Virus record (IMG/VR): IMGVR_UViG_3300034102_002845
Reading direction: 5' to 3' (one strand)
Source: a virus
Lineage: Duplodnaviria; Heunggongvirae; Uroviricota; Caudoviricetes
Length of the DNA stretch: 33,146 nucleotides
Below the pieces are notes generated by a model. That model ran no database searches. It saw nothing but the letters and a program-made list of their open reading frames with translations, and was not told the DNA's origin. Shown in pieces: positions 25,975-33,146 of the stretch. Each line of letters begins with the position of its first letter. Within the stretch, counting starts at the first letter, position 1. A program made the translations under genes and the position numbers.

Positions 25975-27462
25975 TTGGCAAATAGGTTCAAGACAGCTCC
26001 GGTACCGAAGGGGGAGATCTCAAGTTATACGAGCGACCCTTATAACTTATCCAGTATTTACATGTTTGGGAGCTCTTCTCCCTTTACTGGATCCGGAAAT
26101 AGCATCGTTCGACCAAGTGACGACCTTCTCATCCAGAAGGGAGGGAACCGTGCGCTTTCCGTCTATCAGCGGCTTTTCTTTGACGAGCACGTACAAAGTT
26201 CGTTCTCAAAGTTAGTTCAAGAGGTTGTATCGAGACCGTGGTACGTTGAGGAATACAGCTCAAAGCCTGGCGATACTGCAGTAAGGGACTTCGTAGCAGA
26301 AATCCTCGAAGAATTACCCTTAGACGAGATATATAAGGGACTTGCTGAAGCCCTTATCGTGGGGTTTAGTGTTGGCGAAATAATGTGGAAGAAATCAAAA
26401 CGCGGGGTAATACCCTTTGACATAAGAATTAGAGACCAGCGCCGATTTGTTTTCCAAGAAGCGGAAGACTCACAAACGGGCTTCACAATGAGGTGCTTAA
26501 CCTTCAATCGTATGTTTGAGGGGGTTGAGCTCCCTGCTCGAAAATTCGTCGTAAATCGCTACTGGACTCAGCACAACGGGGACCCATACGGAACTTCGCT
26601 AGGGCGAGTTCTTTACCCCCTGGTGAAATTCCGAAGAAGAGCCCTTGAGTCCTACGTTCTTTACGGGGACCGGTATGCGACACCCACAGCTGTTGCGACT
26701 GCACCCTTGAGCGCGTCTTCTGCCGAAATTGACACGATCTATGACCACATCTCAAACTTATCTCAGGAAACTGCGCTAATTTTGCCGGAAGGGTACAAGC
26801 TTGAGTTTGTCAACCCGAGCGGAACTCCGGATGTGTTTAAGGGACTGATTGACTATATCGACAAGGAAATTAGCCTCATACTTTGCGGGGAAAACGAGGC
26901 TGGGCAAGCTGAGTCTGGATCCAGAGCTTCTTCACAGGTTGCAAACGTTGTTCGAGTTGTGAAGGCAGCGGAAATTTCCGAAGCGATCTCTCACACTTTA
27001 ACTCGCACTCTGGTACGATGGATTGTAGACCTTAACTTCGGTGTAGACGTTGCAGCGCCAAGCCTCACAAGGGAGTTTCGAATTGAGGAGTCTTCCCTCA
27101 ATGCCACCGACCTGGGAGCCCTTATCGACAAGGGGTACAAACCGCGTAGGGAGTGGGTTGGGAGGCATTTTCGTATTGAGCTTGAAGACGAAGCACCTGA
27201 GTTCACGACGAAAGAGGAAGAGGGGAATACCACGTTCAACCCAGACGAAGACGAGGATCTCTACGGGTCTATTTTTGGTGCTGACGGAGAGTACCCTGAA
27301 GAAATTTCAGAGGGTGACAACGAGCCAAAGCCGGAGGAAGAACCATCCGGTGAGCAAACCACGTACAACCCTGAAGAGGACGGAAACCTTTACGACTCAG
27401 TGTTCGGGAATGACTTAGAACCCGCTGAAGAAGGCGAAAAGAAGGGTAAAAAACGTGTATGA
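25975..27462 (+). CDS. portal protein, DUF935 / Mu gp29 family
   Basis: DEHV.S...K....V....W, GFSVGEI.W, RDQRRF.F, GDPYG..L...LY, RYA.P, I...+.GE; acidic C-terminal tail; TTG start after GAGG. Confidence 0.88.
   Translation: MANRFKTAPVPKGEISSYTSDPYNLSSIYMFGSSSPFTGSGNSIVRPSDDLLIQKGGNRALSVYQRLFFDEHVQSSFSKLVQEVVSRPWYVEEYSSKPGDTAVRDFVAEILEELPLDEIYKGLAEALIVGFSVGEIMWKKSKRGVIPFDIRIRDQRRFVFQEAEDSQTGFTMRCLTFNRMFEGVELPARKFVVNRYWTQHNGDPYGTSLGRVLYPLVKFRRRALESYVLYGDRYATPTAVATAPLSASSAEIDTIYDHISNLSQETALILPEGYKLEFVNPSGTPDVFKGLIDYIDKEISLILCGENEAGQAESGSRASSQVANVVRVVKAAEISEAISHTLTRTLVRWIVDLNFGVDVAAPSLTREFRIEESSLNATDLGALIDKGYKPRREWVGRHFRIELEDEAPEFTTKEEEGNTTFNPDEDEDLYGSIFGADGEYPEEISEGDNEPKPEEEPSGEQTTYNPEEDGNLYDSVFGNDLEPAEEGEKKGKKRV
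27229..27407 (+). repeat. two degenerate copies of TT(F/Y)NP(D/E)ED..LY.S(I/V)FG.D in the portal C-terminus
   Basis: Copies start at 27229 and 27358. Confidence 0.75.
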
Positions 27463-30038
27463 GTACAACGAGTAGCAAAGTGTTTTCAAAACGTGTTCAT
27501 GTTTTTACGGCGGGACCCCAGGTTTCTGCCCAGGGCGTAGAAAGGGACTTCACACCCCAAGACCTTCAGCAAGTTGTTGATTCCTACGACCCCCAAACAC
27601 ATGAGGCACCCCTTGTTATTGGTCATACTGGGGACAACGACAGTGTTCCTTCTTTCGGGTGGGTCAAAAAGTTGGTCAGGAGCGGAGAGAAGCTATACGC
27701 AGACGTCGACTTCACTGACACTGCTAAAGATTTGGTGAAAAAAGGGCATTACCGCAAAGTCTCCATATCCTTCTACTCTCCAAACTCTCCAATTAACCCC
27801 CATGAGGGACAGTGGAGCGTCCGGCACTTGGCACTTTTGGGGGCGTCGCCCCCTGCGGTTAAGGGCTTGGAGCCTTTCTCGTTCTCTGAGGAAGGTGACG
27901 GAGTGTTCAACTTCGCTTCAACCCTCTCTCCCGAAGAAATCTTTGACGATGAGCTCGGCCCCACACTTCTTGTTGAGCGAGGCCCGTTGGAAATCCTAAA
28001 GGAAAAGCTTGAGGAAATTCGTGGAGACATGAGTTCTTCTCTTCAAGAGCTACAAGAAAACCAAGACGATCAGACTGAAACAGACGTCGATTCGACACAA
28101 ACTACAAATTCGGCGGATGAAAGTACCGCCCCCGAAAACCCTAACCAGCAATTTTCCGAAATGAAAAAGAAAATGGGGCGTGAAGGAGCTGAAGTCTCCG
28201 AATCCGCTCAAAGTCTAGCAAACATGGAAGACAAATTTCCAGAAGAGAAGTTCGACGAAGGAGTCTCTCGCAAAGTTGCGAAGGGTGCTCACGGCCACCA
28301 TGTACAAGTTGTGGAAGAGGTTTTTGAAGAAGGCGACGAAGAACTCTCGGACGAACACCGCGAGATTCCCGCTGCTTTCAGGAAAAATATCGCTAAGATG
28401 AAGGCTAAGCACAAAGCCCACGATGAGGACGGGGAAGATGATGAAGACGAACTTTCCGAGGAACACCGAGAAGTTCCTGCGGCTTTCAAGAAAAATATCG
28501 CTAAGATGAAGGCCAAGACAGCGAAGGTGGAAGAATCCGACGAGGAAGATTCTGAGGGCGACTACGCTGAGGTAGGGTTTAAGAAAACTGCGAACAGACA
28601 GGCATCATTTGGAAAACGTGCTGAGAAGGATTCAGGGGATCCAGCTGGTCGTTCTAAAACAGCACGGTCATCCGACGATAGCTACGGGGACCGTCAGTCG
28701 GTTGGACAAGGGGATGAGGAAGACCGCGAAGGTTTGACTTCAGACGTGACGCAAGACACGGACCGTTTAAACACTGCTAAGGACGGTGACCAGGAGCAAG
28801 ACCGAGAAGAGCTGGCGAAAGCACTCGACGGTGAAGGGGACGAAGATTCCCGTTGGGCCGACCAACCTGAGGGTCGCCGCCGTTCAATGGAAGACGACCA
28901 GTACAACGACGGTGAGTACGGCCTCCCCGGAAGAAACAAGCCGGGAACCTCCGATGGAAACGACCCCCACGGTCGAGACGGCGGGCCAACAACCGTCTCT
29001 GAGGACTCTGAGGAAGAGCCCGACACCGAAGATATTGCTGTGCCGCTTCAGAGCACCAAAGGCAACAAAGTTTCTCGCGTTCTCCACCAAACCTCTGGAC
29101 AAAAGAGGGCGTCGGTCAAAGGTAAGGAAATTGCGGATCACAGCGAAGAGTCCGACGGTGTTACACGAACTGCAAAAAAGGCAGGTGTTTCTGCGGGGAA
29201 CGATCCCCACGGTCGCGAAGACGGACCCACAAACTTCCCAGACCGGTCCGAGGAAGAGCCGGACGACCTCGACATTGCTGTCGACCTAGAAAGTGTCGTT
29301 GGTAGTCGCAAAGTTCGTGTGCTGCGTCAGCGATCGGGTGAAAAGCCTTCGATCGACCACGCTGAAGACGACGATCTTGACATGGAAGAGTGTGGGACTT
29401 CCAGGAAAGTTTCTCGCAAGTTCGCAGAACGCGATCCAATGACTCGAACCGGAAAGGGCTCGACTTACGGGCAAAAGCGTCCCGCTATGGAAGAGGATCC
29501 GGACGAGGATGGCGACCGTGACGACAACGAATTCGCTGAAACTGACGACTTCTGCGGAATGGGGTCAATGGGACAGGCTAAGCCCATGGGATATCCGGTT
29601 CAAATGTTCGAGGAGTTCCAACGCGAGCTGGAAAATCTTAAGAATGAAAATTCTCGCCTGAAGAGAGAGTACCAGGAGCATCAGACCAAAACACGTAAGC
29701 AACGCATCGCCGACTTTGTTGACAGCCTCTACACCGAAGGAAAGATGACCGACGGAGTAATTCCTCAGAGAGAGCTTCAAAACTACTGCGAAGGTCTTGA
29801 GTTCGGTACACTTGACTTCGCAGAAGGAGAAACTCCAACGACCAAGTTGTTTGCGCTGCTTGAGCGTTTGCCCAACATGGTTCACTTCGGTGAAGTTGTC
29901 GCAGAGGGACGTTTCAGTGACCCTGAAGATGACGAAGATCTAGACCCCCATTCTCGTGCAATGAAGATGGTTCAGGCTGGAGAGTGCGATTACGTTGAGG
30001 CAATCAAGCGTTCCATTCCTTGGGGAGGTCGGGGCTGA
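27459..30038 (+). CDS. Mu gpI-like prohead protease fused to a long acidic scaffold region
   Basis: YDP..HEAPLVIGH, FGWV..L, YRKVSISFY.P, RHLALLGA.PPAVKGL; acidic repeats; C-terminal coiled coil. Confidence 0.85.
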   Translation: MSTTSSKVFSKRVHVFTAGPQVSAQGVERDFTPQDLQQVVDSYDPQTHEAPLVIGHTGDNDSVPSFGWVKKLVRSGEKLYADVDFTDTAKDLVKKGHYRKVSISFYSPNSPINPHEGQWSVRHLALLGASPPAVKGLEPFSFSEEGDGVFNFASTLSPEEIFDDELGPTLLVERGPLEILKEKLEEIRGDMSSSLQELQENQDDQTETDVDSTQTTNSADESTAPENPNQQFSEMKKKMGREGAEVSESAQSLANMEDKFPEEKFDEGVSRKVAKGAHGHHVQVVEEVFEEGDEELSDEHREIPAAFRKNIAKMKAKHKAHDEDGEDDEDELSEEHREVPAAFKKNIAKMKAKTAKVEESDEEDSEGDYAEVGFKKTANRQASFGKRAEKDSGDPAGRSKTARSSDDSYGDRQSVGQGDEEDREGLTSDVTQDTDRLNTAKDGDQEQDREELAKALDGEGDEDSRWADQPEGRRRSMEDDQYNDGEYGLPGRNKPGTSDGNDPHGRDGGPTTVSEDSEEEPDTEDIAVPLQSTKGNKVSRVLHQTSGQKRASVKGKEIADHSEESDGVTRTAKKAGVSAGNDPHGREDGPTNFPDRSEEEPDDLDIAVDLESVVGSRKVRVLRQRSGEKPSIDHAEDDDLDMEECGTSRKVSRKFAERDPMTRTGKGSTYGQKRPAMEEDPDEDGDRDDNEFAETDDFCGMGSMGQAKPMGYPVQMFEEFQRELENLKNENSRLKREYQEHQTKTRKQRIADFVDSLYTEGKMTDGVIPQRELQNYCEGLEFGTLDFAEGETPTTKLFALLERLPNMVHFGEVVAEGRFSDPEDDEDLDPHSRAMKMVQAGECDYVEAIKRSIPWGGRG
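28335..28517 (+). repeat. tandem duplication ELS(D/E)EHRE(I/V)PAAF(R/K)KNIAKMKAK
   Basis: Two copies about 108 nt apart in the scaffold region. Confidence 0.85.
28956..29343 (+). repeat. two copies (240-nt period) of GNDPHGR..GPT...(D/R)SEEEPD..DIAV.L.S..G..K..RVL.Q.SG.K
   Basis: Copies start at 28956 and 29196. Confidence 0.8.
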
Positions 30039-31462: not shown

Positions 31463-31549
31463 TACAGTGACCCCAAAGTTTTCGGACTCGCGGGTCAGAT
31501 TGCTTCGGCAATCTTTGAAGTCAACTTTACACACAAGGAAACATCTATT

Positions 31550-31558
31550 ATGATGAAT
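31550..31558 (+). CDS. probable major capsid protein, exon 1 (MMN)
   Basis: AAGGA SD upstream; ends in T at a P1 U-G pair (GAAU/GUUC). Confidence 0.75.
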
Positions 31559-32453
31559 CATAAAGGTTCCACTCAGAGGTGACTCTGATTGAAAATCGGG
31601 TGAATTGCTGGGATACCTTAGTTTTGCTTTTGCAAAATAGGCAATCAGCAGCCAAGTTTACTTAGGGTCTCTACTAACTATAGTAGTGTTAAGTAAAAAG
31701 GTTCAACGACTAGAAAGTGATCAACCCTGAAATAATCTTTCCACGAGCGCCCGACTCTCGTAACAACCACTTCTTAAGAAGATACCTAAGAATGTGCTTT
31801 AGCATAAGATCCTTATCTCGCGTAAAATGCAAGAGGGATGGTTTAGAAAAGCACAGAATTCTACCTAAATGTATGGGTGGAACTTACAACCCCGAAAACG
31901 TAGTTTTAACTACAAGAAGAGAACATACAGTTCTTCATTTAGTACTTCATAAAGCTTTCCCCACTAATATAAAACTCGCTGAATGCGCCTCCTTAATGAA
32001 CGGATCCAAAGGGTCCAAGTTCTACAAGACTCTGGAGTATTGTCAGAAAAACGAGGAAAAGTCAAAACGGATAGCTGAGTCTAACAGAAGGAGAAAAGTT
32101 TCTTGGGGTCATAAAATTTCCAGCTCCCTAAAAGGTCGAACCAAAGACAAGGAGCACAGGGATAAGATAAGTAGCACTATGAAAGAAGTGTGGAAAAATA
32201 ATCCCACAATGATTGACAAGTGCTCCCGTAAAAACTCTATCCATAGCGATGAGTCAAAGCGAAAAATTTCCTGTGCGATATCAAAACAAAGATGGTACTG
32301 GAAAATCGAAGGTGCAGAAGTGATTAGAACTCGGTCAGAAAAACACCCCGGCGAGGGGTGGCAGCTGGGCCGTAATCCGAGATGATGATATAGTCTGAAC
32401 TTTACAGAAATGTAGAGAAGTAAAGGATAAAGAGCCTTTACGATAACAAGTTG
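31559..32453 (+). mobile_element. group I intron 1 (IA-like, 895 nt) with HNH ORF in L8
   Basis: P3 TCGGGTG/CGCCCGA(31748), P GAATTGCTGGGA, Q AATCAGCAG, P7 GACTA(31708)/TAGTC(32391), extra P7.1/7.2 region, P9 hairpins, P9.0 AAC/GTT, terminal G 32453. Confidence 0.9.
31717..32385 (+). CDS. intron-encoded HNH homing endonuclease with NUMOD3-like C-terminal repeats
   Basis: EKHRILPKCMGG...PENVVLTT.REH...HL.L (HNH); KISSSLKGR..EHRDKIS..MK and HSDESKRKIS (NUMOD3-like); start codon uncertain (GTG 31717 vs ATG 31792). Confidence 0.85.
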   Translation: MINPEIIFPRAPDSRNNHFLRRYLRMCFSIRSLSRVKCKRDGLEKHRILPKCMGGTYNPENVVLTTRREHTVLHLVLHKAFPTNIKLAECASLMNGSKGSKFYKTLEYCQKNEEKSKRIAESNRRRKVSWGHKISSSLKGRTKDKEHRDKISSTMKEVWKNNPTMIDKCSRKNSIHSDESKRKISCAISKQRWYWKIEGAEVIRTRSEKHPGEGWQLGRNPR

Positions 32454-32480
32454 CTACAACAAACTTATGCAGGTGTGGAT
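32454..32480 (+). CDS. probable major capsid protein, exon 2 (LQQTYAGVD)
   Basis: 27 nt between terminal G of intron 1 and P1 (GGAU/GUCC) of intron 2; in frame. Confidence 0.8.
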
Positions 32481-32741
32481 TAATTAGGGTCCCAACTTCC
32501 AAACAAAGTTGAAAATCGGGTGAATTGCTGGGATACCTTAGTTTTGCTTTTGCAAAATAGGCAATCAGCAGCCAAGGCCCCTAGGGATAGGGGCAAGGTT
32601 CAACGACTAGATTAAGTAGCCTAGAACAGGCGAACAATCCACGAGCGCCCGACTCTTTGCTCAAGCAAAGATGATGATATAGTCTGACCTGTATGGAAAC
32701 ATACAGAAGCAAAAGATAAAGAGCTTTTGCGATAACACTGG
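32481..32741 (+). mobile_element. group I intron 2 (IA-like, 261 nt, no ORF)
   Basis: P1 GGAT/GTCC, P10 ATTAGG with CCAAT, P3 TCGGGTG/CGCCCGA, P7 GACTA(32605)/TAGTC(32680), P8 TCTTTGC/GCAAAGA, terminal G. Confidence 0.9.
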
Positions 32742-32780
32742 CCAATCCTCACAACACTCGCACAAGGCTTCATGCTCCCT
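32742..32780 (+). CDS. probable major capsid protein, exon 3 (PILTTLAQGFMLP)
   Basis: 39 nt, in frame; spliced VDPILTTLAQGF resembles the (V)DP+LT.+A.GY N-terminus of Mu-like major capsid proteins. Confidence 0.8.
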
Positions 32781-32995
32781 TTGGTGTAGGGGAAAAGAAA
32801 TTGGGTGAACTGCGGGAAAGCCTACTTTTGCTTAGCAAAAGGGTCAATCCGCAGCCAAGCTTCCGGTACACCGGAAGAAGGTTCAGAGACTACCTGGGGG
32901 ATTTAGTTCCCTTAATAACAGGCTAGAGCGCCCAACGTTTTGTAAAGAAACGATAAGATAGTCCGACACTCTGTGTAAGCAGAGAAAACATACTG
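32781..32995 (+). mobile_element. group I intron 3 (IA-like, 215 nt, no ORF, divergent from 1/2/4)
   Basis: P1 TCCCT/GGGGA, P10 GGTGTA with TCCACC (5/6 pairs), P3 TTGGGTG/CGCCCAA, P GAACTGCGGGAA, Q AATCCGCAG, R GTTCAGAGACTA, S AAGATAGTCC, P8 CGTTT/AAACG. Confidence 0.9.
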
Positions 32996-33013
32996 TCCAC
33001 CAACATTGCGAAT
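32996..33013 (+). CDS. probable major capsid protein, exon 4 (STNIAN)
   Basis: 18 nt, in frame; ends GAAT like exon 1. Confidence 0.75.
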
Positions 33014-33146
33014 CGATAGGGTTCCACTCAGAGGTGACTCTGATTGAAAATCGGGTGAATTGCTGGGATACCTTAGTTTTGCTTTTGCAAAATAGGCAAT
33101 CAGCAGCCAAGTTTACTTAGGGTCTCTACTAACTATAGTAGTGTTA
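33014..33146 (+). mobile_element. group I intron 4 (5' part; runs off the window)
   Basis: 33020-33146 identical to intron 1 31565-31691; P1 GAAT/GTTC. Confidence 0.85.

Follow-up and report, generated by a model that had tools for sequence, protein, structure and literature searches.

Shared ribozyme segments and a covarying P10 guide in the group I introns of a phage capsid gene

An interrupted capsid gene start and the repeat within its introns

The window analysed here is the whole 33,146-nt stretch of virus record IMGVR_UViG_3300034102_002845 (IMG/VR; Caudoviricetes), and the subject of this study is the gene start that occupies its last 1.6 kb and is cut by group I introns. Three complete introns of this class were recognised by Rfam on the + strand (31545-32417, 32446-32706 and 32760-32985), and a fourth one, which starts at 33014, is truncated by the window end. 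These introns are designated A to D (or 1 to 4). Throughout the text, coordinates are window positions on the + strand, and site numbers give the nucleotide of the capsid coding sequence (CDS) that precedes each insertion. The host gene was identified as a Phage_cap_E major capsid gene by the Pfam match of the downstream exon in G001, a 189.9-kb viral contig (locus L007; other relatives are named below by such locus numbers). When the downstream capsid exon of G001 was used for a search, 299 related viral contigs were found.

In many of these relatives, the capsid gene is uninterrupted and 351 codons long, and the encoded protein starts with MMNLQQTYAGVDPILTTLAQGFMLP[S/A]TNIANFIAPVV. The intron-less capsid gene of L029 was used as the ruler for insertion positions, intron boundaries were set from intron-less homologues, and the insertion sites of the key contigs were assigned by spliced global alignment. 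With the boundaries listed in Table 1, splicing of the complete relative L008 gave the exact N-terminal protein and an intact open reading frame (ORF) of 1056 nt. The spliced ORF of L011 was likewise intact over 1056 nt.

A preliminary description of this DNA, made from the sequence alone, had pointed to an identity between introns 1 and 4. This identity was confirmed in the window, in which the 127 nt at 31565-31691 recur exactly at 33020-33146. The match is halted solely by the window end, and 127 nt is a lower bound on the repeat length. Before each copy, the exon ends with GAAT (31555-31558 and 33010-33013), which is followed by a 7-nt loop and then by GTTC, the 3' strand of P1. The two loops differ, as had also been noted: CATAAAG is found in intron A and CGATAGG in intron D. 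In intron D, the exon end ...GCGAAU and the guide CGAUAGG-GUUC form a P1 of 4 bp, GAAU/GUUC, which includes a U.G pair. The identical P1 pair is used by intron A, and the common P1 originally described is thus borne out by the sequence. Upon comparison of the window intron A with the complete intron D of L016, a 99.7% relative, 194 nt were found to be identical past the loop, or 195 nt when the common last G of the loop is included (31565-31759).

Table 1. Positions of the exons, introns and intron elements at the capsid gene start in the window
Feature	Position	Strand	Remarks
Exon 1	31550..31558	+	ATGATGAAT, encoding MMN; 3' end GAAU is the P1 5' strand for intron A; placed from intron-less relatives and spliced L008
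Intron A (intron 1), group I, 895 nt	31559..32453	+	After CDS nt 9; ends ...AACAAGUUG; Rfam RF00028, 60.8 bits
P1 loop of intron A, CAUAAAG	31559..31565	+	About 2 contiguous bp with exon 2 (CUACAAC)
Copy 1 of the 195-nt block common with intron D	31565..31759	+	P1 3' strand, P2, P3-P5, long P6, P7/P3' and the first 14 ORF codons
Homing-endonuclease ORF of intron A, 222 amino acids, predicted HNH-type, PHROG 655	31717..32385	+	Start inside the ribozyme core; site-9 ORF clade (100/99)
Exon 2, 27 nt, CDS 10-36	32454..32480	+	Placed from intron-less relatives and spliced L008
Intron B, 261 nt, site 36	32481..32741	+	Rfam, 97.1 bits; P3-P5 module identical to those of A and D
Exon 3, 39 nt, CDS 37-75	32742..32780	+	Placed from intron-less relatives and spliced L008
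Intron C, 215 nt, site 75	32781..32995	+	More diverged group I intron; Rfam, 66 bits
Exon 4, 18 nt, CDS 76-93	32996..33013	+	3' end ...AUUGCGAAU
Intron D (intron 4), 5' 133 nt only	33014..33146	+	Site 93; loop CGAUAGG at 33014-33020; P1 3' strand GUUC at 33021-33024; repeat copy 2 from 33020

Intron D in related genomes and its P10 guide

At its full length of 938 nt, intron D was found in ten relatives (L016, 1382-2319, and nine more contigs). On Rfam RF00028, the full intron of these relatives scored 71.9-74.1 bits over model positions 1-253, the gathering score being 50 bits. The first 133 nt of the window intron D match intron A, which itself scored 60.8 bits on this model. In L016, the intron ends with ...AACAAGUG (...AAGUG, with a terminal G) and is followed by the in-frame exon 5 UUUAUCGCACCG, which encodes FIAP. 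The preliminary description had left the 3' splice site of intron 4 to the sequence downstream of the window. It was located in the relatives, where a complete core, the terminal G and an in-frame exon 5 are all present and ligation of exons 4 and 5 would keep the frame; the window itself stops before the 3' end. Intron D of these relatives is a complete group I intron, predicted to be self-splicing. In G001, site 93 is empty and GCGAAT-TTTATCGCACCGG is read through uninterrupted. Such a polymorphic occupancy (the site is also empty in many other relatives) is compatible with intron mobility but is not a proof of it.

Whether intron 4, like intron 1, carries an HNH ORF had been raised as a point to check, and such an ORF was found in the relatives. 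Intron D contains there an HNH-type ORF of 241 amino acids (L016:1540-2262) with a NUMOD3 motif. Both intron ORFs match PHROG 655, annotated 'homing endonuclease', with E = 4.9e-21 for the A ORF and E = 1.3e-22 for the D ORF. No Pfam HNH domain above threshold was found in the intron ORFs, and a PDB sequence search with the D ORF gave zero matches. On the basis of sequence, both ORFs are assigned to the HNH-type homing-endonuclease family. The D and A ORFs share 39% amino acid identity over 127 residues; as part of the ribozyme block common to the two introns, their first 14 codons are identical. A megablast search of the region against an annotated phage collection gave a sole match of 67 nt to the core of a Clostridium phage intron, which was uninformative.

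The differing loop of intron 4 had been taken for the part of the intron that pairs with the 3' exon (P10), and an exon 5 start of the form YYUAUC had been predicted from it. The relatives do read UUUAUC(G). For the window lineage, the exon 5 start UUUAUCG pairs with the D loop CGAUAGG at 7 of 7 positions. Matches to the site-D pattern were filtered by requiring the intron core motif, and the further loop/exon haplotypes among the matches listed were CGAUAAG/UUUAUCG, CAAUAAG/UUUAUUG and CAAUGAG with either UUCAUCG or UUCAUAG. Across at least five haplotypes, two base pairs of P10 are changed on both sides (G-C to A-U, and A-U to G-C), and the changes in exon 5 are synonymous. That the D loop acts as a P10 guide, covarying with its exon across lineages, is supported by good comparative evidence, and the locus would provide a clean natural example of such a guide covarying with a protein-coding exon at synonymous positions of its codons.

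At site A, six loop variants pair with exon 2 (CUACAAC or CUCCAGC) at 2-3 positions only. The proposal that the D loop had been retuned from the loop of intron 1 was dropped, as none of the six site-A loops pairs well with exon 2.

Origin of the identity between introns A and D

In the preliminary description, intron 4 was regarded as a recent copy of a ribozyme into a second site of the same gene. The distribution of intron D points to a greater age. An intron is present at site D in relatives with a capsid identity of 84-88%, at least in L035, L040, L097, L114, L138, L152, L189 and the L062 type, and the D introns of these relatives have the same insertion point and different P2 and P5 elements. 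Furthermore, the likeness between the window intron A and the L016 intron D is not uniform. It reaches 100% in each of the segments P1'-P2, P3-P5, P6 and P7-P3', drops to about 51% nucleotide identity in the ORF body and is 88% at the 3' end. Differences between A and D thus amount to 0/194 in the common block and 9/72 at the 3' end (Fisher p = 5e-6), most of those at the 3' end being compensatory changes of base pairs in P9 and P9.1. With site D old, an ORF only 39% identical that groups with other D ORFs, and a 3' end different at 9 of 72 positions, the claim of a recent copy was not upheld.

Intron phylogenies, which had been suggested as a check on that claim, gave a divided answer. In the ORF tree, the sequences fall into a site-9 clade (100/99) and a site-93 clade (95/96), and the L016-type D ORF sits with the D ORFs of other lineages; this split by site speaks against a recent copy. 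In the tree of the ribozyme 5' half, the window intron A is identical to the L016 intron D and is nested among D introns (97/99, 95/93). For this half, an approximately unbiased (AU) test of site-9 monophyly gave p = 0.043. Over the four 5' segments, the orthologues D(L016) and D(L035) are 89/75/75/98% identical, and the orthologues A(window) and A(L046) 81/70/68/85% identical. The A and D paralogues of the window lineage are therefore more alike than orthologues between lineages, and polymorphisms common to the A and D copies were observed. Paralogues closer than orthologues, sharp tract edges and discordant trees, by which concerted evolution or gene conversion would be recognised, were all found at this locus, with a marginal AU test.

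In the explanation that we consider probable, introns A and D are old paralogous introns, the 195-nt identity results from recent recombination or gene conversion between the resident copies, and the D loop is a P10 guide. Both introns would descend from one endonuclease-carrying group I intron that came to occupy two GAAU sites with the guide GUUC. This duplication would be ancient because the ORF identity is only 39%, and an ancient insertion at the second GAAU site is plausible. Its route may have been reverse splicing, or an illegitimate insertion at the DNA level followed by selection for a matching P1. Later, in the window lineage, recombination between A and D would have overwritten one 5' half with the other; recombination as the mechanism behind the identity is what we infer from the pattern above. 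Exchange of this kind is confined to sequence that is homologous on both flanks, and so the 7-nt P1 loop with the unrelated exons would bound the tract to the left and the unrelated ORF bodies to the right. The requirement for flanking homology explains the exact tract boundaries without any retuning of the loop, and selection on P10 would also keep the D loop matched to exon 5. The 195-nt exchange would be one instance of a broader process by which ribozyme modules are homogenised among the introns of the capsid gene. The locus thereby offers an endonuclease-carrying paralogue pair at two sites that share only a 4-nt P1 target.

Several points weigh against this explanation. The AU value of 0.043 is marginal and the segments are short. 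In other lineages (L108, L114, L159, L062), the likeness of A and D over this region is only 60-64%, and homogenisation would therefore be episodic and not constant. As to the direction of transfer, from A to D or from D to A, the 5'-half tree hints at D to A, yet G001, in which D is absent, has the same A sequence. Moreover, among genomes of exactly the window's type, both full copies are never covered by a single contig, since the repeat breaks such assemblies. For this phage, a repeat of 195 nt, the 3' splice site and a D ORF are thus deduced from the 99.7% relatives. The 133-nt part of intron D in the window has the long P6, which in every close relative goes together with the ORF.

A recent ectopic transposition, in which intron 1 or its ribozyme was copied into a second GAAU site (for example by reverse splicing and reverse transcription) and the loop was then retuned, would readily account for the GAAU/GUUC pair common to both sites and for the identical 5' half of the introns. 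It would also fit the choice of sites: GAAT occurs at nt 9, 93 and 268 of the intron-less CDS and two of these three sites hold the A/D intron subfamily, while a P1 complementarity of 4-6 nt suffices for reverse splicing (PMC3984707). However, a matching P1 is needed for splicing under any insertion route, so reverse splicing is not singled out by it. Furthermore, a recent arrival is difficult to reconcile with a site that is occupied in distant relatives, even if it is empty in G001, with a D ORF and a 3' end that are orthologous to those of other D introns and not to those of A, and with an ORF identity of 39%. A copied intron should also be alike over its whole length, whereas here the complete identity ends after 195 nt. 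Hence, a recent transposition is regarded as unlikely.

Still less probable is an ancient ectopic duplication whose identity was kept purely by purifying selection on the ribozyme, with no recombination. Group I cores are conserved, and the identity of P7-P3' is indeed 85-98% among all A and D introns that carry an ORF. However, the identical block takes in the peripheral hairpins P2, P5 and P6, which vary freely between lineages, as well as the synonymous positions of 14 codons. Selection on the ribozyme would also leave unexplained why orthologues are far less alike than the A/D paralogues and why the 3' parts of the core differ by 12%.

The possibility of a collapsed assembly, which the preliminary description had itself raised, was examined at the level of contigs. 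A 31-mer across the exon 4/intron D junction was found exactly in 12 other IMG/VR contigs, most of them from different metagenomes, and a misassembly private to the window contig is therefore excluded. Both the A and the D junctions, with the downstream continuation, are present in 8 of these 12 contigs. The genomes that were assembled through the region are only those in which one copy differs, by an alternative P5 in the L008-type intron A, by an ORF-less A (L011, L019) or by an ORF-less D (L012, L018). The L016/L024 contig opens within its own intron A, at a point where exactly the last 127 nt of the repeat are left; these 127 nt recur exactly in the intron D of the same contig, and a 128-mer does not. 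The contig ends would accordingly correspond to a break of the assembly graph, built with k = 127, at a repeat longer than k. An artefact in which a collapsed or chimeric contig end made the second copy could be suspected from the position of the window end, which leaves exactly 127 nt of the repeat (a usual upper limit of k-mer size), and from L015, which also stops inside intron D, but it is barely credible in view of the junction found elsewhere and of the many contigs that traverse the whole intron into exon 5 and the remaining gene, the contig end being a consequence of the repeat and not its cause.

Short-read assemblies of these phages are broken by such intron repeats exactly at the capsid gene, so that capsid genes will be overlooked or incomplete when metagenomes are annotated. 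Inside the A/D repeat lie the ends of three independent contigs of this phage type (the window, L016/L024 and L015), and for two of them the end is at exactly 127 nt.

Modules shared across the intron family and comparison with known systems

Sharing of ribozyme segments is not limited to introns A and D. In the lineages of the window and of G001, introns at sites 9, 36, 41 and 93 have one P3-P5 module in common (at most 2 mismatches), and a different P3-P5 module is found at sites 9, 41 and 356 in L062. At site 9, four modules were seen in four lineages, and P1-P2 is still recognisably orthologous. Such module patterns are the marks that repeated homologous exchange among intron copies, i.e. 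concerted evolution, would be expected to leave. With ribozyme modules exchanged at the population level within one gene, the reasoning that identity means a recent copy becomes unsafe.

Across L007-L019, sites A and D are polymorphic, with ORF-bearing forms (about 895-938 nt) and ORF-less forms (263-266 nt). In the ORF-less forms, the short P6-P8 module is that of the neighbouring ORF-less introns. The loss of the ORF thus looks like a module replacement, with a swapped P6-P8, and not like a simple deletion.

The second intron is not inserted at the same point in all lineages. In the window lineage it follows nt 36 (GUGGAU|; window 32481), and in G001 and L062 it follows nt 41 (CCCAU|; about 3612 in L007), 5 nt away. 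The site-36 and site-41 introns differ in P1/P2 and have a P3-P5 module of identical type.

The largest number of introns was observed in L062 (IMGVR_UViG_3300027763_000031), whose 1056-nt capsid gene contains, according to the spliced alignment, 11 group I introns of 259-280 nt, all ORF-less; similar capsid genes were noted in L108, L153 and L159. They are inserted after CDS nt 9, 41, 93, 150, 160, 192, 273, 281, 303, 318 and 356. Micro-exons down to 8, 10 and 15 nt separate them, and the spliced ORF is intact. To our knowledge, there is no other phage gene with as many group I introns as the L062 capsid gene. Across the relatives, at least 14 distinct insertion sites were counted in the capsid gene. 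All four introns of the window are in phase 0 (sites 9, 36, 75 and 93); among relatives, sites 41, 281, 356 and 893 are in phase 2 and site 160 is in phase 1.

The ORF-less site-93 intron of L062, which is identical in L108, L110, L146, L153 and L159, appears to end with ...GUUUUGUAUAUUA before the conserved exon UUCAUAGCACC. Its last nucleotide would then be an A and not the canonical G; the nearest upstream G adds 7 nt and breaks the frame. This end may be either an unusual 3' splice site or a misjudged boundary.

How group I introns reach new sites is an open question. A broader, tentative explanation is that the capsid gene hosts a self-propagating intron family. Its members would colonise new positions by guide matching, through reverse splicing or an equivalent process, and A and D would be a preserved example; recombination between introns would homogenise the cores, and the P1 loops would co-evolve with synonymous exon sites. 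We hold this to be possible but doubtful. If it were true, this phage group, in which at least 14 insertion sites are used and up to 11 introns lie within 356 coding nt, would serve as a natural test system for the ectopic spread of group I introns.

Around 1989-1990, shuffling of intron domains was reportedly obtained in the laboratory with the td, nrdB and sunY introns of phage T4, together with exon shuffling through intron cores. The situation described here is similar in that different introns of a single phage genome would recombine through their homologous core segments into chimeric introns with site-specific ends. Unlike the T4 case, which was selected in the laboratory and concerned introns in different genes, it is natural and population-wide, and it involves introns only 84 coding nt apart in one gene and at least four module-sharing sites.

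Phage group I introns with HNH or nicking endonucleases are well known, such as those encoding I-HmuI in SPO1 and I-BasI in Bastille, and so are the multi-intron genes of Twort. I-PfoP3I of cyanophage Pf-WMP3 is a further homing endonuclease of a phage group I intron (PMC3428280). The introns of the capsid gene resemble those of SPO1, Bastille, Pf-WMP3 and Twort by their group I ribozyme, by the HNH/NUMOD-type ORF in a peripheral loop and by the conserved phage gene that is interrupted. They differ from them by a far larger number of introns per gene (6 in close relatives and 11 in L062), by the capsid host gene and by the exchanged modules.

In nuclear rDNA, a spread of group I introns by reverse splicing is suggested circumstantially by related introns at different sites (Bhattacharya et al. 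2005, PMC1299323); direct evidence is lacking according to a review (PMC3984707). As with the rDNA introns, the paralogues described here lie at two sites whose upstream exon fits one internal guide. Unlike them, they interrupt a protein-coding gene of a phage and encode one homing endonuclease per copy, diverged between the two, and their near-identity would be a recombination overlay that does not point to recent transposition.

No description of the intron-rich capsid gene of this phage group was found in literature searches. What is new here is that, in one phage capsid gene, the ribozyme modules of many introns show concerted evolution in nature, accompanied by clear guide-exon covariation.

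Upstream of the capsid gene, the window contains a gene for a Mu-like protease/scaffold protein (Pfam Mu-like_Pro) and a small structural gene. Within the acidic middle of the protease/scaffold ORF (859 amino acids, 27459-30038), a direct repeat of 84 nt, 82% identical, was observed at 28326-28409 and 28434-28517. It encodes a duplicated ...EHREIPAAFRKNIAKMKAK... segment.

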